The translations under genes were made by a program, and so were the position numbers. 64,000 nt of DNA from Hormiphora californensis (taxonomy: Eukaryota > Animalia > Ctenophora). How positions within the stretch are numbered: the first letter of the stretch is position 1; every line of letters begins with the position of its first letter. Positions 39,237 to 64,000 of the stretch are shown one piece after another. The stretch spans positions 1,364,001-1,428,000 of the forward strand of contig CM035357.1 of the NCBI GenBank assembly GCA_020137815.1. The letters are read 5' to 3'. Under the pieces are notes generated by a model. That model was not told the origin of the DNA, made no database searches, and was given only the letters and a program-made list of their open reading frames with translations.

Positions 39237-42200
39237 TTACAATACAACATGTGCAAAAATCACTGCGAAAATCAAACTCATGGACCAAGTCATCCTAACT
39301 CCATGCCCCGCTGCAGTTAGTTTAGCTTCCAACAGCTTCCTGGAGCACCCATCCGTCTTACAAGTTTCAATATAACATGCTTTAATGAAAGAATTCTTAG
39401 TGCATTCTGCGTCTTCAGTAGATCCGTCCAGACAGCCCAACCTGTAGAGACCAACACCAAGAAGATCCCACTCTGCAAGATAACAGTTCTTACATGTCGG
39501 GAATTCTTCAGCGCACGTCTGGAAGCCGAATATATCGGGTGAATATATACAACTCTCGCATTTGCTCTCTTTAGGGAGATGAAGTGGTGAGGGACAATAA
39601 CTGCTCTCACATTCAGTCTCACATCCGGTACCATTACAAGTCAGCGAGCAGGTGTCGACAGTTACACACTTTGCCATACAACCTGCACCCGTGCATATTG
39701 CAGTACAGTTTACAGATTCTTCGCAGAAGGCGATACATCCATCACCAATGCACTCTGCCTTGGAAGTCGACACCAACCCGGTAGAATTACTATAGTTATA
39801 GACTTTAGCAGAGTGGGCGGTGCACTTTTTACCTGTACACTTGGCTCTATTGTATGTTCCCTCCTGGACACTTGCGTAACAGTTATCCCCCGTACACTCT
39901 ATTTTAGAAGAGTAGGCACCAAACAGTGTTATGTTCGCCCAGTCGTTTTCCCCACTGGTGACCACATCGCTGCTAGTACCATATTTCAGATAAATCACTG
40001 CTCCTTTAGCACCCTTGGAGAGCGTCACACTAGTACTGCTGAGATAGTCAAGGAATGCTGTGTTGTTATTTCCCTTTATATTTATCACCGAGTTTCTCGT
40101 TAAAGCACAGATTTCTTTCGCACTTTCGTCGCACTTTCCAATTGTTTTACATTGGCAGGCCCCCACATCCTCTGTATCTGAGACCTCCAAATAACACCAA
40201 TCACCCTCACAATTCAGTTCATCATAACTGCCATTCAGGTAGGTGAATGTACAATATCCGCCCTTACAGGTATACTCATTATAGTAACTCTCCCCAATGT
40301 TCCCCATGGTACAACCATTTGCCTCATCAGCACCATCACCAGTATTATCGCAGGACAATATGAACTGATTATTCTGGGATTTCGAATCCTCCTCAAGCTT
40401 GTCATCAATTACCATCTTGGATTTCTTTCCCGTCACACTGATAGATCCGTAGGAGTTAGCCGTTAAAGTGGCGGATGAAGATGTTCCTACCACAGTCACC
40501 TCTAAGGTGTAACCCTTCTCCGAAGTAAAAGCACACCCCTTTTCTGTCTCCGAGCACAGAATCTGCACACTCCGACTGTTATCTGCGTTGTAAGCACACG
40601 CCGTAGAATTTTTGGCCGTTTCATAAAACTCGCCCGTACAGGTTTTATCACCAGTCGTCAGGCAAATCCTTTTGATGCACAGGCCCTGTGAGGAGGAGCC
40701 AATGACTTCTAATGTAGCAATATCAGAAACAATATTTCCACCTCCAAACGATTGACTTTCCGCATAGCTGATATTCACAAAATAATACCCGCCATACTCA
40801 GCTTTACTGGAGCTTGAGATATTGTACAGCGCGGTATAGTTTTGGTTGGCTAGTGTTAGTAGCTTGGTAGTATGAGCAGGTACAGCATTCTTGAAGACAT
40901 CCTCTTCAGTTATTGTATCAGATAAATCAGTCAACCACCGGTACCATTGGATGGTCCCAACTGCATCGGCTGCCATTATGGTGGCACTCAGTGTCCCTCC
41001 CAATCCTTCCACAAGGGTCGTGTTGGGTAGCTGTTCTGTGTAACTAAACTCCACCGCAGTGGCTGTTACTGTTGTTGTCCCTACATTGTCAATGGTTACC
41101 TGACACGAGAAATCAACTTTGGTGGCGTTGACATCGTCTGCAGGGATTGTGAAGTAGATTAGTGTCAGTTTGTTGACCGTAGTTCCCTTCTTTATGGATA
41201 GTCCTGCATCTGCCACATTTGCTGTGGTATAGGACTCCCCGCCCCATCCGAAAATTATTTTATCCTCCGGGATGTTATCCTCAGTGTTGTATACATTGCA
41301 TTGGACTTTAAGGTCGGACCCGGTTACCATGAGGGGTTGAGTGATATTGACGATGGAAACTCTGATATACGCATACATAGGGAGGAGATATTCGTTATCG
41401 TCTCTATCTGTAAACTCCCACGTGCATGTCCATTTAGTATCAAAAGCAGGGACACCTTTCAGGGTAAGTGTGAAGTAAGGTCGACCACTGTCCGGGTAAC
41501 TACCATCATACTTCACCTCCAAGGTAGAGTCTGTCTCATTGTCAATTGTCACAAACTGACTCCCAACTGCTATTTTAGCATTACTAGGGTATTTTCTTTG
41601 GCGTGTACCCAGGTGGAATCATGAAGAACGACTTCACATTAGTTGTAGCGCCAGGCAGAACCTTTTTATAGCTTGTAGACATGTAGAAATCGCGTTTTCC
41701 CTGACCTGACTTTGGTGTTCCACGAGCTCCCTTCTTCCCTCATAATCCACACTGTCCCCCAACTGTCCGAAGATAAATCCTCACAGGTTCCGCCATCGAT
41801 CTTCCTGGACTTCATATCGTCAGTACTAATCTGCCAATCTAGTGTTGTGATGTTGTTGGCAATGATTACCAGTTTCTTGTCATTGAGGAACAGCATCCAT
41901 TCTATTTCTTTATCGTCGGGCACGTTTATCATGTTCGGAGTTCCGACGCCATCCCCGCCCGTGCATCCCCATATTGTCACTGCATAGTCGGTACTGGGGA
42001 GGGTAAACGTGTTACTTTATACTTGTATAATTTTACTGGGGAGGGAGGAGGGTAAACATGTAAAGATTGGTAAAGAGTCAAGAGATAATATTGAAGGAGT
42101 TATGGAGATGATGAGGTATATATTACTTACGTCCACGAGATTCTGAGTTTAGCAGGAGTGTTTGCTCCGCTAGGTGGACTTTCGAACGCTTGAAACCAGA

Positions 42201-43742: not shown

Positions 43743-46700
43743 CCATTGTGCTTGTGGTACAGTGAGATGCTGCGTTGCCGCTGTTTGTGTTTGAAGCGGG
43801 GAGAAAAGCTGGGGACGGATTTTGTAGCGATGAGGTTGTTAGTAGACTCAGGGGCGGTGTCACTGATTAGAGAGTGCTTACTAGGCTCACTTTGATCTAG
43901 ACCTCCACCGTTCCTATCTGAAACATGTCGTGTGGATAATGGTCTAGGTAATGTAGGGATTTTGTAAATGCACAGTCGTGCTCATGTCGTGGATAATGGC
44001 ACAGGCTGAACAGTGATGATGTGCCGGCCAAAGTGCTCGACAGTAGGAGCTTGAACTAACCTAGTTTCAATTAGATAATGACCCAGTGATATTGTTGGGA
44101 TTTCGGAAAAGTTTAAAGAAGATGGTTTATTTTACCCTTTGATTTGACGGAGGATGCTTTGTGATGATTTCCACCGCCACCGGGAGTCGGTAAGGGTTGG
44201 GAAAGAGATCCTTGAAGGGAGATGGCGCCATCATTTTCATCATCTCCACACTTTGATCCCCACCTCTGAGACAAGAAAGAGTGAGAGAAACGCGCTAGCT
44301 AAAGACGACTGACATAGTTCAGCCGCAAGCTCCTGATTTTTGATTGAATTTCAGTATGTACATACTACCAACACATGACTGGCTGAAAAAGGTTCTACCT
44401 GGGACTAGATAAATCCACTCACCCTGTAAGACTTCCGGACGAAAAAGAACATTGCTTGAAAGAGTCCTCGGTGGGTTTTACGTTTGTCTGTGTGAAGAAG
44501 AGTCTGTCCATACAGAAATGGGTTGGCAGCAGCGCTGATAAATAGGAATCCACCCAGACTGAGGTTGTGCCAGTACATCCTGTGTGGGAAATTAACCTTT
44601 TTTTTTAAATTCACTAATTAACACACTTGTTGTTGACCAGCAGATATTTTCTAATCCCTGTCTCAGACTCAAATATCAATATATCATATAATGCATGAAG
44701 GAGGAAAATTAAAAAATATCTGGCCGGGGTCGAACCGACTGCCCATATAAATGTTATATGATACGTTTTCCTCAATAGACTCTATCAAGACATATTTTCT
44801 GTCACTACTTGTTACTTACCCTCCAAAGGGATCCTTGTTACCCTACTTACCCTCCAAAGCAGCCACCCAGGGTAAGGTTGTGGTGAAGGGTCCACGCTGG
44901 TCCCTGGGTACCACTCATGTCTTGGAAGAACTCGAGAACTCCATCAATATACCATGGAGTGTAGAAGATAATGAAACATAGAAGGAGCTTTATGGTCATC
45001 ATTAGTGAGTCACGCTCTCTGGCTGGCCTGTTTGGGTGATTGGAGGGGGTCGAAGGAATTATATCATTACACGTATCATTGCAGACCTCTTACACCCGAT
45101 AGGGCTCACACCCGATAGGGCCCTCAGGGGGCAGGGGTAACGTATTCCAAGTAATATTCTAACCTGTATTGATTGTTTCGGTGACTGACTTGCTTGGTCC
45201 GGTATAGTCGGAAGAGGAATGATGAGAGATAGACAAGGGAGAGAAGGGTAACTGCACCAGGTAGCAAGAAGGGAACAAGGATCTGGCCCGCTACGGAGAG
45301 TGATTTGTTGGTCTTGTTCCTCAGAACAACCTGCGGGTAGTAGTTGGTGTTGTAAACAACCAATCAGAACTCGTTATTTAGGTCACGTGACTGGTTATCA
45401 GCCAATCAGGGACCAGCATTTCCTGATTCGGTCGGTTCCTGGCTGTGGCACGGATAGTTGGTGTATAATGGGAGTAGTCACTGTGTGGTAATACTTATCG
45501 GAGACTAAATGCAGAATGATCGCAGACTGAAATGAGGTAATAATATTCTAGATGGGAGAGAGAGAGGAGAGAGAGGAAGGGAGAGAAAATGAGATGGCAG
45601 AATGAAAATAATTCTTGGGTCTAAAATCAGACTGTACATTGCCAGTATGGCCTAATCTTTGATCTTTGAAATTCTTGGATTTCACTTCATGAAATGAAAT
45701 GGAACAAGATTTAATCCTGATCAGATCTCATTCACTCTAGGAAATAAAATAGAATTTCACAGAATACCCACTGATTTGTTGGTTCCTGATTTCTACACCC
45801 ACCACACAAAGACCAGCACTGCGGCTGCAGTACTCAGCATGGAAATACTGGTCCCTGATTGGCTGATAACCAGTCACGTGACCTAAATAACGAGTTCTGA
45901 TTGGTTGTTTACTCGGTTCCTGCACAGAACACTCACCACACAGAGACCAGCACTGCGGCTGTACTCAGCATTGGATATTTTCCCGTCGTAAGAGTAGACT
46001 GAGGATACTAGTACAAGAATCCAAGCCAGACAAGTAGCAGCTATCGTCCGCGGTATTGAGCAAATCTGAATTGGATGTAGGGTTGGTATACGCTACAGGC
46101 CCCTTATGCGGGGGTGTGCACATGAGGGGGCTGCAGTGCATTCCAGGATGTAGGGAGGGATATCGGTCAAAAGTTCATGGAGGGGAAATATACATTTATG
46201 AGCTCGCTTGTGGCTATTTCGAAAAGGTAGTCAATTACACTTCGATCCTAATCTCACAAAGATTTATAAAAAAGTAAAGTGAACTTACCCTTCCAACCCT
46301 TAGAGGTGCAAAGACGCATATAACCCGGAAGAGGGCGATGAATGTCACGAAGATGATTGAGATACGGGCACAGCAGCTATGTAGAAACACCACTACCACT
46401 GAAAGTAATAATGATAGCTACTGGAATTACACAAATTAAATTGCACTAGTAAATGTAAATCGCGATATATCTAATAATTGTGGACAGTTGTTTCTTTTAT
46501 TTTCCTATCCTTGGCTTTAAAACTTAACTCTCCCTTATGTTTGGCCTAACTTAACTAACCTGTGATGGTGCTACCGGGCGAACCAAGTATATCCCTTCCA
46601 TTTAGAAGACCATGTATGGTAGCCCACACTGGTATCGTCAGGATGATAATATCACCCGCTGCCAAGTTGCTCACTAGGGTAAAGAAACTCGCTTTCGACT

Positions 46701-46929
46701 GGTTTGTTCTGTATCTCAGCGTACTAAACATCTGGTAGAACAGGTATCCATTCTCTGAGATACCCATTATTGACAAACACAGATAGAGAATTCCAAGACT
46801 GGTATCAAATGACCTGACCCAGGGTTTCTCCAGACACTCTGTGACTAGTTTCGTGTAGTTGGCTCCTTGTTCTGGCATTATGAAGGGTTTAGCTGCAACC
46901 GTTACAAGTTGAGTCGGGTCCACATCCAT
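43733..46929 (-). CDS. Rhodopsin-like (class A) GPCR, ~8 exons
   Basis: TM1 GISENG; TM2 NLAAGD; TM3 FIALFRVICVFAPL (46290-46399); TM4 AWILVL; TM5 LVPFLLPG; TM6 CFIIFYTPW (44850-45030); TM7 SAAANPFLY (44421-44579). Tail exons end at TAA 43733. Confidence 0.85.
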
Positions 46930-47970
46930 TATATTGAACTTGGATGGATTCCTATATACTGGAACAACTTGGATGGATGGATTCCAATTCTCTATACTGC
47001 GACAAGTTACATAATGGAACTATATGGGATGTGGTTCACTGTTACACTCACAAGAAAGGGCAGAAAGTTGGCATGTGCTGCAGTCCTTTGGTGACGCAGT
47101 CACCCTTACAACTCGCGCGCGTAGCACGCGAAAACGAAGCCCGCGAAGCAGAGAGGTGATGGCATCACCAATGCAGTCCTCTAGCGTGTAAGTTTGTGGC
47201 GGCTACAAGAGGGGACTGCAGCGTTTGCCAAAGTTAAAGAAACAGTGTTAAATCTAAAGGGGTTCACGCCCATGGCAACCGCTCAAATAAACACAACAAT
47301 TCAGACAAATAAAGGCAGACTAAAGAATTATATTATCTCTCTTTTATTATTATTATCTCCCTCCTATGTAAAGTTAGAGGCAGTGTGTAATTATCCAGGC
47401 TCTACTGACATATGTTTCTATTGTCAAGGGACGGGCTGGCTACAAATTAAGGGGCCATTACGGGGGCAAAGTTGTATTGTAACAACAAAACTATAACAAT
47501 GTCAGTAGCAAGGTTAGCTCCACAAACAAACCAAAGGACCACAAATTAAGTATCCTAAGTAATTCCTAACTATTAGTTTATGACGTGTCAAAAGTGATCT
47601 AAGAAGGAATCTCCTCCTCTGGTATAGGCTGCTTACTACTTATATGTTTTACTAAAGTCAGATTTTTAAGTAGTCACCAGTTAGTGTAGTCACCCCTCCC
47701 CTTCTTGTGCACTCGTTTTTTGGTGAGCTTGTCAAAAGTTGATAAATGTCACATGCGTGTGAAAAAGGGGGTGACTAAATCCTACTCTACTACTACTAGT
47801 ATCGGCTGCCTGTGCTGCACTATTACAAAATGAAGAGGTGGTGTGGGAGAGAATTAAACCACGTGATGCACCTGATCATCTTTCTCCCACTCTTTCCCTC
47901 CTGCTCATTCTCTCCATCTTACTAATGCTTTTCTCTTTCTCCATTTCTTTCTCTCTTTCCTTCCCCGCCG

Positions 47971-49695: not shown

Positions 49696-52600
49696 ATGGT
49701 GTACACTAGGAAGACCAAGTTATCACGGTTACCCGCTGAACACATTTACAAGTTAACCCAGAGTTTAACCGTTGCACCTGATACACGAGGATGGAGGCCG
49801 CTAATTGCTTTTCTCAACTTAAACATGGGTACGTTGCCTTCTTGGTAAACCTTCCTTACTCTACCCTCTAGCTTCTACAAAAAGCTTCTAAAAATGAGAT
49901 GGGTTAGAACAATTCCCATTTGAAATTATTTGTGTTGTGAATGTCAGAACAAACTCTGGCAAATGCGAGAACTGCTGCAGCAGCTCCCAGCTGCAAACCC
50001 TCGGGTTAGAACATAACAAAAGTCAGCATTTCTCTAACACTCCTCTTATTCAGCGGAGGCGAGGATGTGTGAGGTAGGAGGCGGGGCAGAAGCAGTGATT
50101 GATTTGATACTTCAGCGAGGTTGGAATGTAGGGAAGCTAATGGATACCTTGAAGAAAATAGGAAATGAAGCCGCTGCAGCTGATATTGCTTGTGTTGTTA
50201 GTATTGAGCCAGATGCAAAACCGAGTAAGTTTTGAAGTGATGCAACCTTGATCAGATCATTGTGATTTGTTACTTTTGTGGGGAATATAATATCCTCAGT
50301 CACACTTGAATAATAATATTAATCTCCTCTCAGTCACAATTGAATAATAATATTAATCTCTTCAGTCACACTAGAATAATAATAATAATCTTCTCAGTCC
50401 TGATAGCGGGTCAGCTAGAATTACAGAGTGGGGAAACGTTACAACTCCAAGTCAATGCCCCTGCCTCCTACACAGACCTGCAGTGGTATCATGGAAAGGA
50501 ATGTTTACCAGCGGAGAAATCACGGGACCTCTCCATACCTAATGTATGTGTGTGTAATTCGCAGAGACGTGTACATCCGGAAATAAAATGTCTTTCGATG
50601 CGAATTTTAATGTTTTTCTTTCTCTTTCCAGGTTTCAGAAGCTGATATAGGTCGCTATAGTGTCCGATTGGAATCGGGCTCTGGTGTTGTCAAATGGGTG
50701 CACTGCGAAGTTAGCATCAGAAATATAGGTCAGTTTTAGTTTTATCTCTCGCTCTATGACTCATGCCCGCAAAGTGAGATCACATAGCTTCTGGGCAGAG
50801 CGCGCGCGCGGAGCACCGAATGTCTTGTGGGTATAGTGTCAGCATCGGAACGTGCGCGAGCATGCGCGGTCACAACAATAAACTGGCAATGGTACCACAA
50901 ATAAACAACAGATTTGGTCTAATTTGAAAAACAATGACCACAATTGATTAGATAAGATTAAATTCACTCCCCTTCGCTCTGTTTCAATTATTGTTTCATC
51001 AACAGTTTTACAGAGCAAACAAATTGTAGAAATAAGAAACTTCAACCGGCGTTGATGATAAAACTGATGTGCTGTAGAGAGACAACGTGTTTACTTTCAT
51101 GGTATTGTACTTCAATCGTCCCCATCCGAATCTCCATTAATAGAAGAACTAGACAGCAGCGGTTTCATCTCAATGTCTCCCTTAACCGTCTCTCCGGAAC
51201 TTCGTTTAACAGTCATTACAGCCACACAACAAATCCGCCCCAAACTAAACATGAACAGCAGGAACAAACCTACAAATATCACTATGTACAACAAATTGAC
51301 TCCTTCCCCTGCTATGTAGGAGTCAGAATCAGAGTGGTGGTCCTCGATAGGATTATCATGATGTAGGCAGTTCTCATCGTTACAGATGTGACTGTTACTG
51401 CACTCTGTTAGGACTTGTTCAATAGTGACCTGGGAGTGTGCTTGGTTACAACGAATGTAGAATTGAGAATTCATTGCTTCATGATCCTGCTATCAAATGT
51501 TCAAACCGGGGCGCGGTGAGAGAGGTTCGAGCAAGGCTAGCTCGATCCTCCCTCCTAAACAAACGTACTACTCCTGTCAGGGCATCGTCACGACAGTGCT
51601 AATCAGTACTTACCCCATTCATATGTTCCTCTAGTAACTCCTGGATGTAAAACCCGATGACCTGACAGAAGAACCTTGTCATCTTGTAAGCAGCAAAACA
51701 TTCACTATAGTGAAAATGTAGGCTGATATCAAACATATCACCAGTTTGAGTTTCAAACGTTGTAGCATTAAAGAGGCCAGAAAAGCTTATGCAGGATTCC
51801 GATTCATCCGTTGTGTCGTTAGAGGCTTTGCACGTCTTGATGTCAGATGAGCGGCATAATTCTGCGGGGAAATGAATACTGTTTAGGCTATTAATCAGAC
51901 TGTTTGAGCTGTTATGATCGGTAGATAGCCAGAGAAATTCATGTAAGAAACCAAAGTGAAGTGTGATCTACTGAGTACTGACCATAGTTATCAAATAACT
52001 GTCCTCCCTGCGACAGTGATTCTTCAGCCACAACCCCGTTAGTAAACTGCAGGCATCCATCATAGCACTGAATAGCTTCAGTCACGGGCAGGATGAAGGT
52101 GCTAACTATGAAACACAAGACAAGTGGCATAACTACTGAAATCTGAAAATGATGTCCTAACAAATCATACTGAAAGAATTGTATTTTTCGTGCTCCTTCA
52201 TAAAACTTTTCTACTCTCTGGGAAAACAATAATTAGGGGTCTTTTTCACTAAACTGGCTGTCTTTGATTGACTTATTGTCCGTATTTCACTCTGTTTTTC
52301 ATCATCGTCTACCCCTCATTGCCCAGAGGCGGTCGAAGTTGCTGTTGTAGAGTTGTTGTAGAAGACTCTGGAAATGTGTTTCCTTGGTGAAATTGCTCCC
52401 ACCACAAACTTCCTGAAGCTCTTCAGTGTTGCCATGTAGATGAGCGGGTTGAGGCTGTTGTTCAGGAACTTGACAAACGCTCCGTACCTGTACAAATATA
52501 ATCTGTTACACACAATGGGGTAAGTGGTATCAATTCCTAAATTGGTGGTGTTTTGCTATACTTGCGACAGTGATATTGAGCACACAGTTACCTGCTGAGA

Positions 52601-55600
52601 TAAAGGAAGATATCTTCGTCACCATCTTTTAATGAACTGTCCACCACCCAATACACACCTGTAGGAATAAACCAAATAAGTACACATTGGAATGTATAGA
52701 ATGGAATGTATAAAACATATAACGGAATGTATAAAGTGAAATGTATTTGAAATAATGATCATGGCTTGAATTGCTGTTTACCAAGAACCGACCGAAACAA
52801 GTAAACAACCAATCAGAACTCGTTATTTAGATCACGTGATTGGTTATCAGCCAATCAGGGACCAGTATTTCCTGATTCGGTTGGTTCCTGCGGTTTACCT
52901 ATGGGAGCGTATGAAATGATGTACACCAAAGAAACGGGAATGAGTGTGAACATGGCCTGTTTATTTTCCCCAGTAACTTTCTTCACATAGCAAAGGAGGG
53001 CTGCTGTGGTTATCAGTACAATAACATTGGGTCCTAGTAGGAAGATACCCATCAGAGTGGGTCCCAGCCACTCCCAGATACCATCCGAGGAACTGTAGTT
53101 GCACCTGTATAGAGGTAGTGAGGTCAATTCAGTGGGCGGCTGTGGGCCTCACAACTGTAGTGGGTAGTGAGGTTAACTCAGTGTGCGACTGTGGGCTTCA
53201 CAACTGTAGAGGTATAGTCGAGGTCAACACTCAGTCTGTGTCTCTATACAGTATACACACAACAGTAGTGGGTGGAACATACTGGATCGGTACAGAACAT
53301 ACTCACACATGACACAGACACACACGACACAGACACAGACACAGACACACACACTGCAGACAGTAGACACACACATAAAACTTATACCTGTAGATTCTCC
53401 AATCAAACCGTGACGGTCTCCCTATTCCTATCAGTGGGTAAAGGTGGGCAAGTGCCACAGCGATGGCACTGAAAACCAGCCCATGCTTTTTGGTCCTGGA
53501 CCGGGCAGCAAATGGTCGCATCAGGACGGCCAACTTGTTGATATTCAGGGCACAAATCAGCAGAATATCAGTCAAGCAGAAGGCATATTGGATGTAGGTG
53601 GAAACCTCGCAAAGCCACGATACTCCCTGATACTGCCAACCATTGATAGTGACGGATATTGCCACTTGAAGGATGACGAACACCCCATAAACCATATCTG
53701 CAATCGCTATCCCCTCTACTAACGTTTTAGTCACCTGAAACAGCATTCAGTTGGACCCCGATTTACTGGGGTGCTCAGGGAAAAGATTAAATAGGAAACC
53801 GGTAAATCGGGGCCCGACTGTACCATTGTATTACAACCAGTGTCAACCACACAACTAGAAAGCCCCTAGATACAGTTCATCAGCTATACATATATATACC
53901 AGAAATCCCTTTATAAGCAAAGATATATAGAACTCTGAATATTTTACTCGACACTCACCTCCCCACTGCACTAACCTCCCCACTGCACTCACCTCATCTA
54001 GTTTTATTGCGTGGTATTTTAGTGAGGCAACCAGTACTACCGCATTTCCTGGAAATATTTCACAATTATATTAGAGGTTTCTTGAAAATCAAAGGACCGA
54101 CGGTAAACATAAGCTAATTGACTATCAATTAGCTTACGTGTTCCGTCAATGACAGAAGCTTTCGAGAACACTGTCTTTCACGTCTTCACTCTTCAGCTTT
54201 TGACTAACCTAGTACAGCTAGCAGCCCTGTCCCATAGCAAACCTACCTAGTACAGCTAGCAAGCCTGTCCCATAGCACCACGCTGCAAATGCCCCTCGGA
54301 CAGCAGGTGATTCAAATTCGTAATAAGATTGGTTCCAAGGGGGTACGAACATGATTCTAAAATCTAATTTGTGTTGTTGAGTAAGTGAGTGGGACTCAAC
54401 AAAATTTGTGGGCATTCCATCTCCTGGAGGGGAAATCCACACAATTTATACTTCTGGAGGTTAGGTGAAACTTTAGCTTTAGTAAAGCAAAAGGTTGGAA
54501 CAGCGGGCCAAATAATTTGGAAATTAGATGTTTAGTAGTAAACAAACAAGCACTAAGGTGATTTAATTATTTGCGTTTTTGGCGCTGTCACCAGAATACT
54601 TTACTGTGAAATATTGGACTAACTAACCACCAGGAACCGACCGGACCAAGTAAACAACCAATCAGAACTCGTTATTTAGGTCACGTGACTAGTTATCAGC
54701 CAATCAGGGACCAGTATTTCCTGATTCGGTCGGTTCCTGCTAACCACTAACTTCACTCACCCACCTTCCTTGTTTCAGGAACAGAAACGAGACTATGTGT
54801 TTTAACAAAACTTCCTATTTTTCAGTCGAGACACTACGATTTGTGCTGCAGCCCCAAGACTGTACCATCAATGAATCCACCACAACCGCTCATTTCTTTG
54901 TGGACGTCAGACCCCTCACAGCCTCCCTTCAGTGGTACTGCGATGGGGTCCTAATGCACGGGCAGACTGAACCCTACCTGGCCGTGCAGAATCTGAACAG
55001 GAGTGCACACAGGTATACATACAGAACATGGTCTTAGTTATTTCTTCTGAGTTCTACATGTGATAGAGTTCTGGAGAATAGGAGTCCAAATCTAACAGTT
55101 TCGAAATTAAAATACGCTGATATCAGGCCTGAAATATTTCTCTCATTCTAATACCATCTACCAGGAACCGACCGAATCAGTAAATACTGGTCCCTGATTG
55201 GCTGATAACCAGTCACGTGACCTAAATAACGAGTTCTGATTGGTTGTTTACTTGTTTCGGTCGGTTCCTACCATCTATACCTCTCCCAACGTACCAGGCG
55301 ACAGTACAGCTGTGTGGCTCGTCTAGAGGGAGAAAACATTGAAACCCAGAAAGCGCTAATCAGATGGTCAGCCACTCCAGGACCAAACTTTACGGAAAGT
55401 GGTGGTAACATTGAATCAGCTACTGACAAGGTTGCCCTGGTGATTGGAAATCAGAGTTATCATGAACCAACTTTTGGTGATATTGTACACGCTGAGGATG
55501 ATGCGAGGGATATTAGTGATTGTCTCCGGGCCCTCAATTTCAAGGTAGGACTAGGAAGTACAAACAAACAAACAAACAAACAAACAAACAAACAAAAGGT

Positions 55601-58600
55601 AGCACTTTTGTAGCTCATATTATTATAGAAGTAGTAGTACTTGTGTAGTTCATATTGCACAGCTTGTGCGCTCCGTGAGGGTTCGATAGAGCAATGTAGG
55701 ACTAGGACGTACAAACAAACGAATAGGAGTAAACAGCTGCATTGTGGTAACTCACTCAACTCACATAACACATTATGAGTCATTTGAGTCATTTCCCACA
55801 CTGTGGTGTTATGTGAGTTTCTCAAGCGAAACATACACATCTAGCACCACATACATCAGCGAGTTTGAAAAATGAAAAACTCCTAAAAAAGGTAGATTAA
55901 CTAATTAAGCCTGGCAATACAACAAGACATTAGTAATATTCGAGTTACTATCTGATTACAGGTAGTGTCACTGATAAATCTGAGCCGTATTGAAATGTTG
56001 GCGGCATTTGATTCTTTCTACAAGTTACTAAGTGGCGGGGTCTATGGTGTCCTCTACTTTGCAGGTCAGTGTGGGCTGTGAACTACACATTTCTAAAAAC
56101 TTGTACAAGTAAACTGGAAGTGAATGTGAAAGTGCCAACTTGTAATTCTATCGGTGAGAGATATTGAATGTGCACGTTTACAATTTGATAAGGTGTAGGA
56201 TAACTAGACAACTAGTATGACATTTAGTAGAATCAGTTCAAGACAACCAACACTGATACTGTGTTGCCAATTGCCATTGGGCATTGCAACTACTGAATCA
56301 GCAATGACTGCTTGGTATTTATAGGTCGGACATAAATCGAAAGCCGATAGAATAATAGATTGTTTATCCCCATTCCAGTCTACTCACCAACCTAGTTAGT
56401 ACTAAGCACAATCTGGCGTCGGCTCGATTCTTGAAGAAACACTGTTGCTCACGTGATCAGGGGATCTGTGAAACGCCTTTATCAATACCACGTGTGTTTA
56501 AGATACTCAATGATGGCTTTGTGCCTTTATAACACAGATAACTAGTGCTCTGATAGCTTTGTAACAGTCCGACTAGACAGGATTCTTGTCGCTCGTTACA
56601 AAGCTAGCTTCTTGTCACAAGAAGAGGAAAGTAAATGGAGTTTTCCTGTTACGTTCATCACAATTCTCCCAGGTACAACTCAGCCCGCCACGCAGGCTTC
56701 ATTTTGGTGCGCTACGCGCGCCAGTTGTAAGGGTGACTGCGTCACCAATCCCAGGTCATGCTCTCCAACAATTCCTCCTCCCAGGTCACGGGTTTGAGAG
56801 TGGAGGTGTCAACTACCTGGTACCGGTGGATGCTCCTGCAGTGGTCAGTGTCACAGACTGCCTCCGAGCACAACATCTCCTCTACCGAATGCAGTTTAGA
56901 GGAACTAAACTGAACCTCCTTCTACTGGATATGTGTAGGGAGTTCCCTGGGGGTCAGGTTTCATGTGATATCAGACCCGTTCCAACTGTTAGTAATGGTG
57001 CCATCGGTTTCGCATGGTAAGATGAAACAATTTAAAGCCACAACCAATGCAATACTCCCGAACGGCCTATCTGACAGCATAAGTCAATGAACTAGTGCTA
57101 GCCTCCAAGCTTTTGACTGATCCACATCAACTCAAATTTCAAGTCAGATACTAAATCTCATCCTAGCTGATCCACATCATGTTTCCCCTGCAGTGGTCCA
57201 GGTTCCAGAGCATACGGAAGTGAGAGTGACAGGAATGGAATTTATGTGAAATATTTGAAGGAGCATATCAAATCGAACATCACTGTTACGAAACTATTGG
57301 ACACTGTCAACAGAGGTACTACACCTTGTATTGTGTATGTATTCACCCCTTATTTCTTCTTATTTCTTATTTGAACTGTTCGTACTGTCTCCATGCTCCC
57401 TGTGAGTTTTGTTGTATTTTTATTTTCGCCAAACAGTGAGTCAACCACATCTTTTTGTGAGAGATTCGTCCCTACTATTTGGTTAAAATCGGGACAAATA
57501 GTTCAACTATGTATTTCTAAAATATTACTTTCTCTCTAAATCACTATTTCTAAAACCACCACTTTCCCTCTCCAGAGATAGGGCTGAACGAGCCGACTGT
57601 CAGACAGCAGCCCCACTACCAAAGTTCAATAATAGCTGATATCTCACTGGCTGATAGAGTTGATACAACAGGTCATACTGTGGAGTTTCACCACCGATCT
57701 CTCCTGTGGGCTATGGCTAATTGTGAGTAAAAGTGTGTGATCAGTAATTTCCACCGATCATGATTTTAATACTTGTGATGACCACTTTCGTGGGTGATCT
57801 GTCCACGGCCCACCCACGGGTTGTTGAGTTCCCACGAGACCATTGGAATTCATTGTTCACGAACACTAACCCCATGATTATAATAATAGTAACCATAGTA
57901 ACGAATTATAGTAACCCTATGATTATTTCCTAGCACTGGACAGGACAACCGATGAACTGAAACTTCAAAAAGCGGTCCTCTCCGTTACATATACTGCACC
58001 ATTCAGTAATGTTCTGATATGTAAAGTAGACCCCGCACCCAATACCATTATACTTGACCATGTGAGTATAATATAACCACCACCACCACCACCACCACCA
58101 CCACCACCACCACCACCACCACCACCACCACCACCACCCCCCACCCACCACCCCACCCAATACTATTATACTTGACCATGTGAGTATAATAACCACCACC
58201 ACCACCACCACCACCACCACCACCACCACCACCACCACCACCACCACCACCACCACCACCCCCCACCCACCACCCCACCCAATACCATTATACTTGACCA
58301 TGTGAGTATAATAACCACCCCACCCAGCTGTCAGGCCAATGCTCTGACCACTGTTATTTGAGAGAAATGAGAATATTAGGGTCAGGCCAATGCTCTGACA
58401 GCCCCCCACCCCCGATTATATGGGAACAGTATTGTTTAGTCCGGTAGCCCAATAATCATGCGTGATAACTTGGATCATCATGATGATGCATCGCATGACC
58501 ATTCTCAGTTCTATAAGACACGATAAACATTAACACTTATCAACTTTCACAGGATAGTGATATATCGGGTTTGGAGTTGGAACAACTGTCTCCCTCTGAG

Positions 58601-59726
58601 TACGAAATCAGACATATACAGAGGATGGAACAACCGTTTATTGAACTGACCATCATTTACGGGTGAGTGGTGACAAACATGCCTTGCCTTGTTCGACCCT
58701 GTCTCTCCGCGACCTGCGGACCTCATTTACGGGTGAGTGGTGTGGTGACAAACATGCCTTGCCTTGCCTTGTTCGACCCTGTCTCTCCGCGACCTGCGGA
58801 CCTCATTTACGGGTGAGTGGTGTGGTGACAAACATGCCTTGCCTTGCCTTGTTCGACCCTGTCTCTCCGCGACCTGCGGACCTCATTTACGGGTGAGTGG
58901 TGTGGTGACAAACATGCCTTGCCTTGCCTTGTTCGACCCTGTCTCTCACCGGGACCTGCAAATGTCAAAGAGGGTGAGTGGTGTGGTGTGGTTAGGTAGA
59001 TCAAGTGCAGTAGGTGTATAGTCTGATTTTAAATAATTGTCGTTTACGACAGTTGTTTAAAATCCGACTATAGTGGTGAAAAGCTCCTTGTCAGAGAATA
59101 TATATTTGATCACAAACGATACAACTTTTTCCATCGGGCATCGTGTACAGTGTACACTGTACATTGTGTACATTGTACATTGTACACTCACATTTTACCG
59201 TTTCAATAATTGATATGATATCCCTCTCCCTAGATGTGATAGTGGCTCAGTGAGGATTGATCGGCCCCTATTCGCCAAGATTACAGCCAATAGAGCTGCC
59301 TTTGACATGAACCTAAATCTAAGTGGTGGTGGTGGTGGTGGTGGTTCCTCAAGAGCTACTTGTGAGGCTGGACCACCCCACCTGGCAACACGGGCATGCC
59401 CGCCAGGTTTAAACGGACCTGAATCTGGTTTAAACGGACCTGAATCTGGTTGTCATGGACCAGAGTCTGGTTGTCATGGACCAGAATCTGGTTGTCATGG
59501 GGATCCTGAGAAACAAAAGAAGGGAGAGAAGGAAACAGACCACAAACCCGTGATAGGAAAAGAGAATTTAGGTCAGAATGGATCATCAAAAACTCAGGAG
59601 TTGATGTTTGATGAGGTGTCAAGGTTACCAGACTTCCCAACAAATCACAGCACGGATATAGTCTACCCTTTTGTTGGCGTTTATCTTTTCTCACGTCGAG
59701 GTAAATACCTTACTCTCGTTTTTTAA
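49696..59726 (+). CDS. MALT1: Type-1 paracaspase (MALT1-like): death domain, Ig, Ig, caspase-like, Ig-like; 13 exons
   Basis: Exons 49696-49828, 50054-50224 (DD: LSRLPAEHIYKLTQSLTVAPDTRGWRPL..WNVGKLMDTLKKIGNEAAA), 50398-50543, 50632-50728 (Ig1), 54826-55012, 55298-55544 (Ig2, ATDKVALVIGNQSY), 55962-56064, 56785-57016 (YFAG|HG and LLLLDMCR catalytic dyad), 57194-57315, 57576-57722, 57934-58061 (FSNVL), 58553-58662, 59234-59726. All phases are compatible; the 3' end is uncertain. Confidence 0.9.
51112..52130 (-). CDS. Single-pass membrane protein with an LU/three-finger-like Cys ectodomain, nested in MALT1 intron 4 (exons ~51981-52130, ~51614-51861, 51112-~51486)
   Basis: Signal peptide MPLVLCFIVSTFILPVTEA, then IQCYDGC..ECSNSHICN, TM LLYIVIFVGLFLLFMFSLG, juxtamembrane CC and a short tail with EMKPLL. 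Confidence 0.78.
52316..54415 (-). CDS. Rhodopsin-like GPCR nested in MALT1 intron 4, 6 exons; start at 54415 or 54352
   Basis: TM1 LLAVLG|NAVVL; TM2 IAIADMVYG; TM3 CALNINKLAVLMRPF; TM5 FLLGPN; TM6 YIISYAP; TM7 NNSLNPLIY followed by helix 8 SFRKFV. Confidence 0.9.
58036..58320 (+). repeat. Three ~120-bp copies of the MALT1 exon-11 end plus donor, each followed by (ACC)n
   Basis: CCAATACCATTATACTTGACCAT|GTGAGTATAATAACC at ~58039, 58156 and 58279. Confidence 0.92.
58651..58985 (+). repeat. 80-bp minisatellite (~4 copies) carrying the MALT1 exon-12 donor
   Basis: TCATTTACGG|GTGAGTGGTG at ~58653, 58723, 58803 and 58883. Confidence 0.93.
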
Positions 59727-60880: not shown

Positions 60881-63800
60881 TAATATTGGACAATAATGTA
60901 GCTGTAATTTAGTAGTGAGACCAGGCAAGGCTCGAGAGACAGTTCAGTGGTAACTGGGAGGTCATGTGTGATGGAAATGAGAACTAGAGACAGATTTGAG
61001 TTGCATTTTATTGATGAAAATAGCCCTTTTTGGTGTCTGAGACAAGCAAAAGTGAAACGAAATGCAACGTGACGAACGAGTAATGAATAGAATTCTGCTC
61101 TGTGACTTGTTAGTGCTCCTTTATCAAACACGCAATGGCAAAGTACAAAGTTTCCCCAATTTAATTAAATGCGAAATTCCAAAGTTTTGGTCGATTTTGG
61201 CCAAAATTGCTGCCCTAAACTAACTATTGGACTGTGCGTTGCCGGGGAGACTGCTCGCTGGTGACTGAGAGATCATATGTTCTCAAATATTGGTATTTGA
61301 GGCGGATTTAAGTTGCATTTTAGTGAGGGGAAGAGCTAATATTGGACAATAATGTAGCTGTAATTTAGTAGTGAGACCAGGCAAGGCTCGAGAGACAGTT
61401 CAGTGGTAACTGGGAGGTCATGTGTGATGGAAATGAGAACTAGAGACAGATTTGAGTTGCATTTTATTGATGAAAATAGCCCTTTTTGGTGTCTGAGACA
61501 AGCAAAAGTGAAACGAAATGCAACGTGACGAACGAGTAATGAATAGAATTCTGCTCTGTGACTTGTTAGTGCTCCTTTATCAAACACGCAATGGCAAAGT
61601 ACAAAGTTTCCCCAATTTAATTAAATGCGAAATTCCAAAGTTTTGGTCGATTTTGGCCAAAATTGCTGCCCTAAACTAACTATTGGACTGTGCGTTGCCG
61701 GGGAGACTGCTCGCTGGTGACTGAGAGATCATATGTTCTCAAATATTGGTATTTGAGGCGGATTTAAGTTGCATTTTAGTGAGGGGAAGAGCTAATATTG
61801 GACAATAATGTAGCTGTAATTTAGTAGTGAGACCAGGCAAGGCTCGAGAGACAGTTCAGTGGTAACTGGGAGGTCATGTGTGATGGAAATGAGAACTAGA
61901 GACAGATTTGAGTTGCATTTTATTGATGAAAATAGCCCTTTTTGGTGTCTGAGACAAGCAAAAGTGAAACGAAATGCAACGTGACGAACGAGTAATGAAT
62001 AGAATTCTGCTCTGTGACTTGTTAGTGCTCCTTTATCAAACACGCAATGGCAAAGTACAAAGTTTCCCCAATTTAATTAAATGCGAAATTCCAAAGTTTT
62101 GGTCGATTTTGGCCAAAATTGCTGCCCTAAACTAACTATTGGACTGTGCGTTGCCGGGGAGACTGCTCGCTGGTGACTGAGAGATCATATGTTCTCAAAT
62201 ATTGGTATTTGAGGCGGATTTAAGTTGCATTTTAGTGAGGGGAAGAGCTAATATTGGACAATAATGTAGCTGTAATTTAGTAGTGAGACCAGGCAAGGCT
62301 CGAGAGACAGTTCAGTGGTAACTGGGAGGTCATGTGTGATGGAAATGAGAACTAGAGACAGATTTGAGTTGCATTTCATTGATGAAAATAGCCCTTTTTG
62401 GTGTCTGAGACAAGCAAAAGTGAAACGAAATGCAACGTGACGAACGAGTAATGAATAGAATTCTGCTCTGTGACTTGTTAGTGCTCCTTTATCAAACACG
62501 CAATGGCAAAGTACAAAGTTTCCCCAATTTAATTAAATGCGAAATTCCAAAGTTTTGGTCGATTTTGGCCAAAATTGCTGCCCTAAACTAACTATTGGAC
62601 TGTGCGTTGCCGGGGAGACTGCTCGCTGGTGACTGAGAGATCATATGTTCTCAAATATTGGTATTTGAGGCGGATTTAAGTTGCATTTTAGTGAGGGGAA
62701 GAGCTAATATTGGACAATAATGTAGCTGTAATTTAGTAGTGAGACCAGGCAAGGCTCGAGAGACAGTTCAGTGGTAACTGGGAGGTCATGTGTGATGGAA
62801 ATGAGAACTAGAGACAGATTTGAGTTGCATTTTATTGATGAAAATAGCCCTTTTTGGTGTCTGAGACAAGCAAAAGTGAAACGAAATGCAACGTGACGAA
62901 CGAGTAATGAATAGAATTCTGCTCTGTGACTTGTTAGTGCTCCTTTATCAAACACGCAATGGCAAAGTACAAAGTTTCCCCAATTTAATTAAATGCGAAA
63001 TTCCAAAGTTTTGGTCGATTTTGGCCAAAATTGCTGCCCTAAACTAACTATTGGACTGTGCGTTGCCGGGGAGACTGCTCGCTGGTGACTGAGAGATCAT
63101 ATGTTCTCAAATATTGGTATTTGAGGCGGATTTAAGTTGCATTTTAGTGAGGGGAAGAGCTAATATTGGACAATAATGTAGCTGTAATTTAGTAGTGAGA
63201 CCAGGCAAGGCTCGAGAGACAGTTCAGTGGTAACTGGGAGGTCATGTGTGATGGAAATGAGAACTAGAGACAGATTTGAGTTGCATTTTATTGATGAAAA
63301 TAGCCCTTTTTGGTGTCTGAGACAAGCAAAAGTGAAACGAAATGCAACGTGACGAACGAGTAATGAATAGAATTCTGCTCTGTGACTTGTTAGTGCTCCT
63401 TTATCAAACACGCAATGGCAAAGTACAAAGTTTCCCCAATTTAATTAAATGCGAAATTCCAAAGTTTTGGTCGATTTTGGCCAAAATTGCTGCCCTAAAC
63501 TAACTATTGGACTGTGCGTTGCCGGGGAGACTGCTCGCTGGTGACTGAGAGATCATATGTTCTCAAATATTGGTATTTGAGGCGGATTTAAGTTGCATTT
63601 TAGTGAGGGGAAGAGCTAATATTGGACAATAATGTAGCTGTAATTTAGTAGTGAGACCAGGCAAGGCTCGAGAGACAGTTCAGTGGTAACTGGGAGGTCA
63701 TGTGTGATGGAAATGAGAACTAGAGACAGATTTGAGTTGCATTTTATTGATGAAAATAGCCCTTTTTGGTGTCTGAGACAAGCAAAAGTGAAACGAAATG

Positions 63801-64000
63801 CAACGTGACGAACGAGTAATGAATAGAATTCTGCTCTGTGACTTGTTAGTGCTCCTTTATCAAACACGCAATGGCAAAGTACAAAGTTTCCCCAATTTAA
63901 TTAAATGCGAAATTCCAAAGTTTTGGTCGATTTTGGCCAAAATTGCTGCCCTAAACTAACTATTGGACTGTGCGTTGCCGGGGAGACTGCTCGCTGGTGA
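60881..64000. repeat. 456-bp tandem satellite, ~6.8 near-identical copies, continuing past the window end
   Basis: An essentially identical 83-aa spurious ORF recurs every 456 bp (61336, 61792, 62248, ...); I noticed only one substitution (~62377). Confidence 0.97.

Follow-up and report, generated by a model that had tools for sequence, protein, structure and literature searches.

How old is the domain architecture of the paracaspase MALT1, and is it confined to cnidarians and bilaterians? This question is raised by a gene on the forward strand of a 64,000-nucleotide stretch from the ctenophore Hormiphora californensis (assembly GCA_020137815.1, contig CM035357.1, positions 1,364,001 to 1,428,000), which is referred to here as the window and in which positions are counted from the first letter. 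According to the accessible parts of Staal 2018 (PMC5978004), the design in which a death domain and immunoglobulin (Ig) domains accompany the paracaspase domain is dated, like BCL10, to the ancestor of cnidarians and bilaterians. Type 1 paracaspases, which show this design, were not found outside planulozoa, and type 2 paracaspases, which consist of a caspase-like domain alone (PMC5978004 and PMC5756287, as far as accessible), were found in porifera, placozoa and ctenophora. An earlier note on the window, made from the letters alone, had given the same account of the literature, which agrees with that paper. The classification into types originates with Hulpiau 2016, which is known to us through the papers that cite it.

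The gene in the window is likely an apparently unrecognised ctenophore type 1 paracaspase, which would extend the range of this type and likely correct a published date of origin. We think it quite probable that it is spliced, as predicted, into one type 1 paracaspase, likely of common ancestry with those of cnidarians and bilaterians, and that its product is likely a cytosolic scaffold-protease that is clustered via the death domain and cuts after basic residues.

Gene model and domain order

Reading the splice sites of the forward strand between 49696 and 59726 yields one open frame of 771 amino acids from 13 exons, in which all 12 introns are GT-AG and of compatible phase. The domains follow each other in the order death domain, Ig1, Ig2, paracaspase (His363/Cys412), Ig3 and tail, and the catalytic motifs AGHG (with His363, split by intron 7) and LDMCR (with Cys412) are both intact. 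The same order from death domain to Ig3 is found in type 1 paracaspases such as human MALT1/PCASP1, C. elegans MALT-1 and Nematostella t1A and t1B, with which the gene also has in common the AGHG and DMCR motifs, the residues corresponding to Asp365 and Asp462 of the human protein and a tryptophan in the linker. As type 2 is defined by a caspase-like domain alone, the death, Ig1, Ig2 and Ig3 regions that are present in the window and in the Mnemiopsis orthologue place the gene outside that type. Pfam searches with the 13 exons taken singly gave two weak caspase matches and nothing else.

Much of the domain evidence comes from this direct orthologue, the hypothetical protein ACHWQZ_G004123 of Mnemiopsis leidyi (873 amino acids), which is colinear with the window model, identical at 411 of 774 residues (53%; 44-63% in each of exons 1-5) and differs by about 125 more C-terminal residues. 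Conservation towards it is highest in the protease exons (62-82%). All ten of its PDB sequence matches with E <= 0.01 are MALT1, with E values down to 1e-49, and its predicted model superposes on the caspase-Ig3 part of MALT1 with a Z of 39.6 and a root mean square deviation of 2.9 over 340 residues, whereas the best caspase reaches a Z of 23.1. This match includes Ig3, since residues 287-636 of the model align to MALT1 344-729; in sequence the Ig3 signal is weak, and Pfam gave no MALT1_Ig match. A two-sequence search recovered Ig1 and Ig2 as separate Ig matches, with E values of 3e-10 and 2e-8, and they appear as two beta-sandwiches of high predicted local distance difference test (pLDDT) values in the fold of the Mnemiopsis protein.

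The N-terminal part of the window protein scores 16.0 bits against a profile of 103 MALT1 death domains, where the best of 2000 shuffled sequences reached 6.5 (1763 scored), and 18.7 bits against a broader profile, where the best shuffle reached 4.2 (1266 of 2000 scored). A fold computed with an alignment, which is partly circular as this alignment held bilaterian MALT1s, has six helices between amino acids 14 and 98 (pLDDT 81-95), and death-domain clusters head an atlas search (0.81), which is to be taken as a lead only. Several results weigh against the assignment. Among Pfam families, Peptidase_C14 alone exceeds its cut-off in the complete Mnemiopsis protein, with Ig at 25.1 against 30 and 20.7 against 27, and Death at 13 against 22.6 (E 0.11). 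Folded as a single sequence, the death domain of the orthologue has a pLDDT of 52 and a best Z of 4.4, which is chance level, with death-fold chains in ranks 1-7. In the PDB search the IRAK3 death domain (E 0.018) came ahead of that of MALT1 (E 0.49-0.76), with MyD88 at E 1. When exon 2 was compared with the Lymnaea protein by pairwise BLAST, no meaningful match came out. Judged from these comparisons, the domain is likely a real but divergent death domain, weak and as much IRAK-like as MALT1-like, and because IRAK3 outscores MALT1 in the PDB, its orthology with the death domain of MALT1 rests on position and colinearity.

One could imagine that ctenophores built the architecture independently, from a paracaspase that was a protease only and that gained two Ig domains and an IRAK-like death domain. 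Both kinds of domain are mobile, the death domain is about equally like those of IRAK3, MALT1 and MyD88, and the N-terminus does vary among paracaspases, as the cnidarian sequences P0151 and P0166 have a death domain without Ig1-2. We give this scenario very little credence, as the four-domain order, the linker lengths and Ig3 are all as in MALT1, and as the tandem-Ig structure of MALT1 (3k0w) ranks second among the Ig matches of the predicted model. Moreover, the divergent, accepted type 1 protein of Lymnaea scores about as low on the death-domain profile (13.4 bits) as that of Mnemiopsis (12.4 bits). The earlier note had described a layout of a MALT1-like death domain, two Ig domains and a caspase-like domain with both catalytic motifs. 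The motifs and the two Ig domains are confirmed in the 771-residue frame and by the profile matches, respectively, and the layout is borne out, with the addition of the MALT1-type Ig3 after the protease that the note had left out and that is supported by the fold match of the orthologue. The death domain beats its shuffles on two profiles, but its likeness to MALT1 in particular has to be qualified by the closer match to IRAK3.

The nested-gene intron and the ctenophore gene models

The exons for the death domain and Ig1 are parted from the rest by an intron of about 4.1 kb that holds two antisense genes, as had been noted before, so that the type 1 reading depends on the junction 50728>54826. 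From the sequence, splicing across it into one protein is predicted. The phase-1 donor of exon 4 fits the acceptor of exon 5, and reading on past exon 4 meets a stop after three codons. Genomic fragments of lobate-like ctenophores match the end of exon 1 (P0123/P0124) and the limits of exon 4 (P0125-P0129), and the Mnemiopsis model, colinear from Met1, joins Ig1 to Ig2 across the same intron. In addition, a profile of 23 non-ctenophore type 1 N-termini, which were picked among matches to the Mnemiopsis protein and thus not blindly, gave a single continuous alignment to amino acids 3-266 of the window protein that spans intron 4 (E 2.9e-28).

Other observations speak against a single transcript. 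Two transcript-like contigs that are continuous over the protease-side introns start downstream of the junction, and the N-terminus is missing from three of the four other genome-derived ctenophore models (P0001, P0003, P0005), behind which there may be a real short isoform. No RNA spanning intron 4 was found in the single run searched, which covered only repeats of the stretch and no joints and is silent on expression.

Taken further, the death domain-Ig1 exons could be a gene or transcript of their own, with the expressed protease beginning at Ig2 and the joined Mnemiopsis model being a fusion made by the predictor. This would agree with the missing RNA support for the junction, with the start of the Bolinopsis RefSeq model at a methionine inside Ig2 and of P0001 at the exon 5 boundary, and with poly(A)-like hexamers at 50877 and 50900 inside intron 4. 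It appears quite improbable to us in view of the fitting canonical phase-1 donor and the early stop on read-through, of the exon 4 end found at the same place in the lobate fragments and of the MALT1 order and spacing in one unbroken profile alignment; and if the gene were split, its ancestor would still have been of type 1. A search for shorter proteins that carry the N-terminus returned ten matches, all of them unnamed or hypothetical single-exon fragments. The truncation of P0001, P0003 and P0005 is in fact what had been anticipated for predictors confronted with this intron.

Among 38 candidates from a search with the catalytic exon there were five longer proteins, namely Bolinopsis LOC134819218, Mnemiopsis ACHWQZ_G004123, EukProt sb/3465405/ and two unnamed ones. 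The EukProt protein is identical to the window model at 313 of 353 residues (89%), with an identity that is almost complete over the exons for protease and Ig3 and falls to 75% in the low-complexity tail. These named matches support the ctenophore identity that the earlier note had inferred; in two papers, sb numbers denote models of Pleurobrachia bachei, which pointed to Pleurobrachia or a close relative as the probable source. Altogether, at least four ctenophore-type lineages have the gene, and their sequences form one clade. Two ctenophore paracaspases, Mnemiopsis_ML13052a and Pleurobrachia_sb2658077, already stand in the tree of Fig. S3 of Staal 2018 (PMC5978004, seen in part), while the text of the paper files ctenophores under protease-only type 2, in contrast to the death and Ig domains of the window gene. 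They are probably the same gene, since a single ctenophore paracaspase lineage turned up in the searches. The filing of ctenophores as type 2 likely came about because the N-terminal domains score too low for Pfam and gene models are broken at the intron with the nested genes, as we infer for that survey.

The gene itself is thus not new, while its type 1 architecture appears to have gone unrecognised. The earlier note had named a previous report of such ctenophore genes as a refutation, and in this respect a paracaspase in the Staal tree and a deposited, unnamed Mnemiopsis model do exist, but the type 1 architecture apparently was not seen in them. No report of a ctenophore type 1 paracaspase was found in the literature covered, which leaves out most subscription journals, and the sequence supplement of PMC5978004 may bear on novelty; the accessible parts of PMC11797021, including one supplement, mention neither MALT nor paracaspase. 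The novelty is further bounded by the fact that the protein family is known and that a full-length Mnemiopsis sequence has been deposited.

Descent of the gene

A paracaspase phylogeny, which had been proposed as a check in the earlier note, places the ctenophore sequences in a clade of their own outside the bilaterians. The tree was computed from the protease domains of 58 sequences with IQ-TREE under LG+G4. The sequences were picked by hand from a quick tree of 112, leaving out most redundant vertebrate sequences and those below 74% coverage, and many of the labels were taken from neighbours in the tree. The three ctenophore sequences group together (100/100) within an animal-type clade of 43 (100/100) and outside a clade of 26 labelled as bilaterian (96/89). 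In approximately unbiased (AU) tests, for which the groupings were named after the tree had been seen, placing the ctenophores with the lophotrochozoans was rejected (p 0.0013), as was placing them with the vertebrates (p 0.009), and a position as sister to the rest was not (p 0.44). The force of this result is reduced by the base of the animal clade, which is an unresolved polytomy, and by the composition of the tree, which is without named sponge, placozoan or slime-mould sequences. Bilaterian contamination is ruled out by the tree clade and the AU tests.

Introns offer a second line of evidence. Relatives in other animals that are truncated or read through show breaks at the codons where the window gene has its introns 8 (P0270), 9 (P0184, P0196, P0209) and 10 (P0139, P0183, P0196), and by this indirect evidence the protease introns appear to be common to ctenophores and other animals; a further common break in other animals, just after the catalytic cysteine, has no intron as counterpart in the window gene. 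We think that the type 1 paracaspase likely goes back to a common ancestor of ctenophores, cnidarians and bilaterians. That ctenophores acquired the gene long ago from a cnidarian, or that it is a contaminant, would be compatible with the polytomy, which permits a cnidarian sister group, but deserves next to no credence. The ctenophore sequences form one clade across at least four ctenophore-type lineages, the gene is rich in introns, which contain a repeat with 18 copies in the window, and the bilaterian placements are rejected.

Two cnidarian cases differ in architecture. The proteins of Porites and Nematostella (XP_048580644), P0151 and P0166, have, like the window gene, a death domain, a paracaspase domain and an Ig3-like part, but they lack Ig1-2 and form a separate clade. 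These Porites and Nematostella proteins may be the so-called cnidarian type 2, which would then not be protease-only either. A sponge or placozoan type 1 sequence was not seen among the 30 of 150 representatives that were looked up by name, 15 of these 30 clusters being nameless.

Substrate pocket, partners and C-terminal domain

In human MALT1, Asp365, Asp462 and Glu500 bind the P1 arginine (PMC4626109, in its accessible part). Both aspartates are kept in the window gene, and the position of Glu500 is a glycine in each of the five ctenophore sequences that extend over it (window, Mnemiopsis, Bolinopsis, P0002, L002), whereas a count over 204 sequences gave glutamate in 197, aspartate in three and glutamine in one, many of these sequences being redundant vertebrates. 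The positions of Glu549 and Arg551 are changed as well with respect to type 1 paracaspases, and the three replaced positions count against the reading favoured here. A conserved glutamate two places after Gly447 could substitute for Glu500. As one of the three acidic residues of the pocket is a glycine here and the other two are kept, the specificity may be looser than that of MALT1, and the glycine makes the ctenophore enzyme a natural probe of paracaspase specificity.

The protein might also have the architecture described and act mainly as a scaffold, or cleave after a residue other than arginine. The glycine found in all five ctenophore sequences would fit this, as would the sea anemone type 1 paralogues that left CYLD uncleaved (PMC5978004, accessible text). 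We regard it as unlikely, albeit worth keeping in mind, because the catalytic histidine and cysteine and both pocket aspartates are kept, the protease exons are the best conserved ones and the glutamate two places on could stand in.

For the scaffold-protease favoured here, a mechanism can be sketched by analogy to MALT1. A death-fold adaptor would recruit the paracaspase through its death domain, the resulting clustering would dimerise the protease domain and order its active site, and the dimerised protease would cleave signalling proteins after arginine. As has been proposed for nematode and arthropod paracaspases, neither BCL10 nor direct binding of TRAF6 would likely be needed, and the upstream partner would most plausibly be a MyD88-like or SEFIR adaptor. 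In IL-17 signalling, MALT-1 of C. elegans acts together with adaptors of this kind, and ctenophores are not known to have NF-kB. MyD88-like and SEFIR proteins have been reported in Mnemiopsis.

The BCL10-independent reading is favoured by three points. A conserved TRAF6-type motif is missing, as a simple scan gave one match in the window protein, inside the death domain, that is kept neither in Mnemiopsis nor in Bolinopsis; according to the accessible part of a published account, the main TRAF6 site is limited to jawed vertebrates. BCL10 and also CARD-CC proteins are reported absent outside planulozoa, on the basis of older genomes (PMC5978004, accessible parts). The window death domain is about 10 residues shorter than that of human MALT1 near the helix with the BCL10 contacts V81/L82, in an uncertain alignment in which Lymnaea is short too.

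Unlike other type 1 paracaspases, the ctenophore orthologues carry an extra C-terminal domain. Some 125-140 further residues are common to Mnemiopsis (P0004, amino acids 733-873), Bolinopsis, P0002 and L001/L002, and searches with them gave no Pfam match and no usable atlas match; by sequence, the domain would be a novel, lineage-specific ctenophore feature. The window holds only its first 14 residues (59650-59700, E 0.065), followed by a GT donor after 59700; if this donor is unused, exon 13 ends at a stop at 59726. A six-frame search of the window found no C-terminal exon besides this start. As the orthologues extend about 125 residues past the last matching motif and the donor has no later exon in the window, the gene probably continues outside it, and the word complete in the earlier note was probably too strong.

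A copy in ctenophores would part the origins of the protease scaffold and of BCL10, its known adaptor, and would move that of the scaffold back to the earliest or second-earliest branching of the animals. It would also imply that the genes of sponges and placozoans called type 2 need re-annotation. A more far-reaching reading, which we hold tentatively and place slightly short of an even chance, is that the full MALT1 architecture predates BCL10 and CARD-CC and goes back to the last ancestor that all animals have in common, that animal type 2 genes are largely losses or annotation artefacts, and that ctenophores keep a BCL10-independent form, with a reshaped pocket and an uncharacterised C-terminal domain, that points to the role which MALT1 had at first. 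What MALT1 did before the CARD-BCL10-MALT1 (CBM) complex and NF-kB scaffolding, a question of Staal 2018, becomes testable because Mnemiopsis is a tractable laboratory animal.

Features of the paracaspase gene and of the genes nested in its intron 4 (positions in the window)
Feature	Position	Strand	Description
Exon 1	49696-49828	+	Start Met, first half of likely death domain (residues 1-44); 59% identity to Mnemiopsis
Exon 2	50054-50224	+	Rest of death domain (residues 45-101); 44% identity to Mnemiopsis; profile matches
Exon 3	50398-50543	+	Ig1, first part; profile matches
Exon 4	50632-50728	+	Ig1, second part; phase-1 donor at end
Intron 4 (predicted)	50729-54825	+	4097 bp, phase 1, between Ig1 and Ig2; two antisense genes inside
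Nested gene, Cys-rich membrane protein	51112-52130	-	3 exons, 237 residues, open GT-AG model
Nested gene, rhodopsin-type G-protein-coupled receptor	52316-54352	-	6 exons, 317 residues, open GT-AG model; Pfam 7tm_1 E 1.2e-5 in one exon
Exon 5	54826-55012	+	Most of Ig2; 5' edge without in-frame start codon
Exon 6	55298-55544	+	Ig2 end, linker, paracaspase start with Asp313 (human Asp365 position)
Exon 7	55962-56064	+	Paracaspase domain as far as catalytic His motif; 82% identity to Mnemiopsis
Exon 8	56785-57016	+	Catalytic His363 and Cys412; Asp410 (human Asp462 position)
Exon 9	57194-57315	+	Substrate loop; Gly447 at human Glu500 position
Exon 10	57576-57722	+	Paracaspase end, linker helix with conserved Trp
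Exon 11	57934-58061	+	Ig3, first part
Exon 12	58553-58662	+	Ig3, middle part
Exon 13	59234-59726	+	Ig3 end, low-complexity tail, first 14 residues of ctenophore C-terminal domain

The smaller of the two nested genes encodes a protein with a signal-peptide-like start, a Cys-rich part and one hydrophobic, membrane-like segment, which is probably a single-pass membrane protein; Pfam gave no match to its open reading frames, and the cysteine pattern is reminiscent of three-finger (Ly6-type) domains. The dispersed repeat in the introns is about 105 bp long, with one of its 18 copies at 54635-54742 in intron 4 and most copies 92-98% alike. Two intronic tandem repeats, at 58036-58324 (period 122) and 58648-58988 (period 80), copy the ends of exons 11 and 12, respectively, including their donors. 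Beyond the gene, a unit of 456 bp is repeated in tandem over 60881-64000, in 6.8 copies that are 99% alike, and the array runs off the end of the window. Just upstream, on the reverse strand, open reading frames at 44850-47019 resemble exons of another seven-transmembrane receptor, with weak Pfam matches, and a single open reading frame of 793 residues at 39240-41618, also on the reverse strand and without a Pfam match, resembles a surface protein in being Cys-rich with a hydrophobic C-terminus. A protein with a TraB domain (Pfam PF01963, E 2.6e-6) has exons at 1392-2938 on the forward strand.

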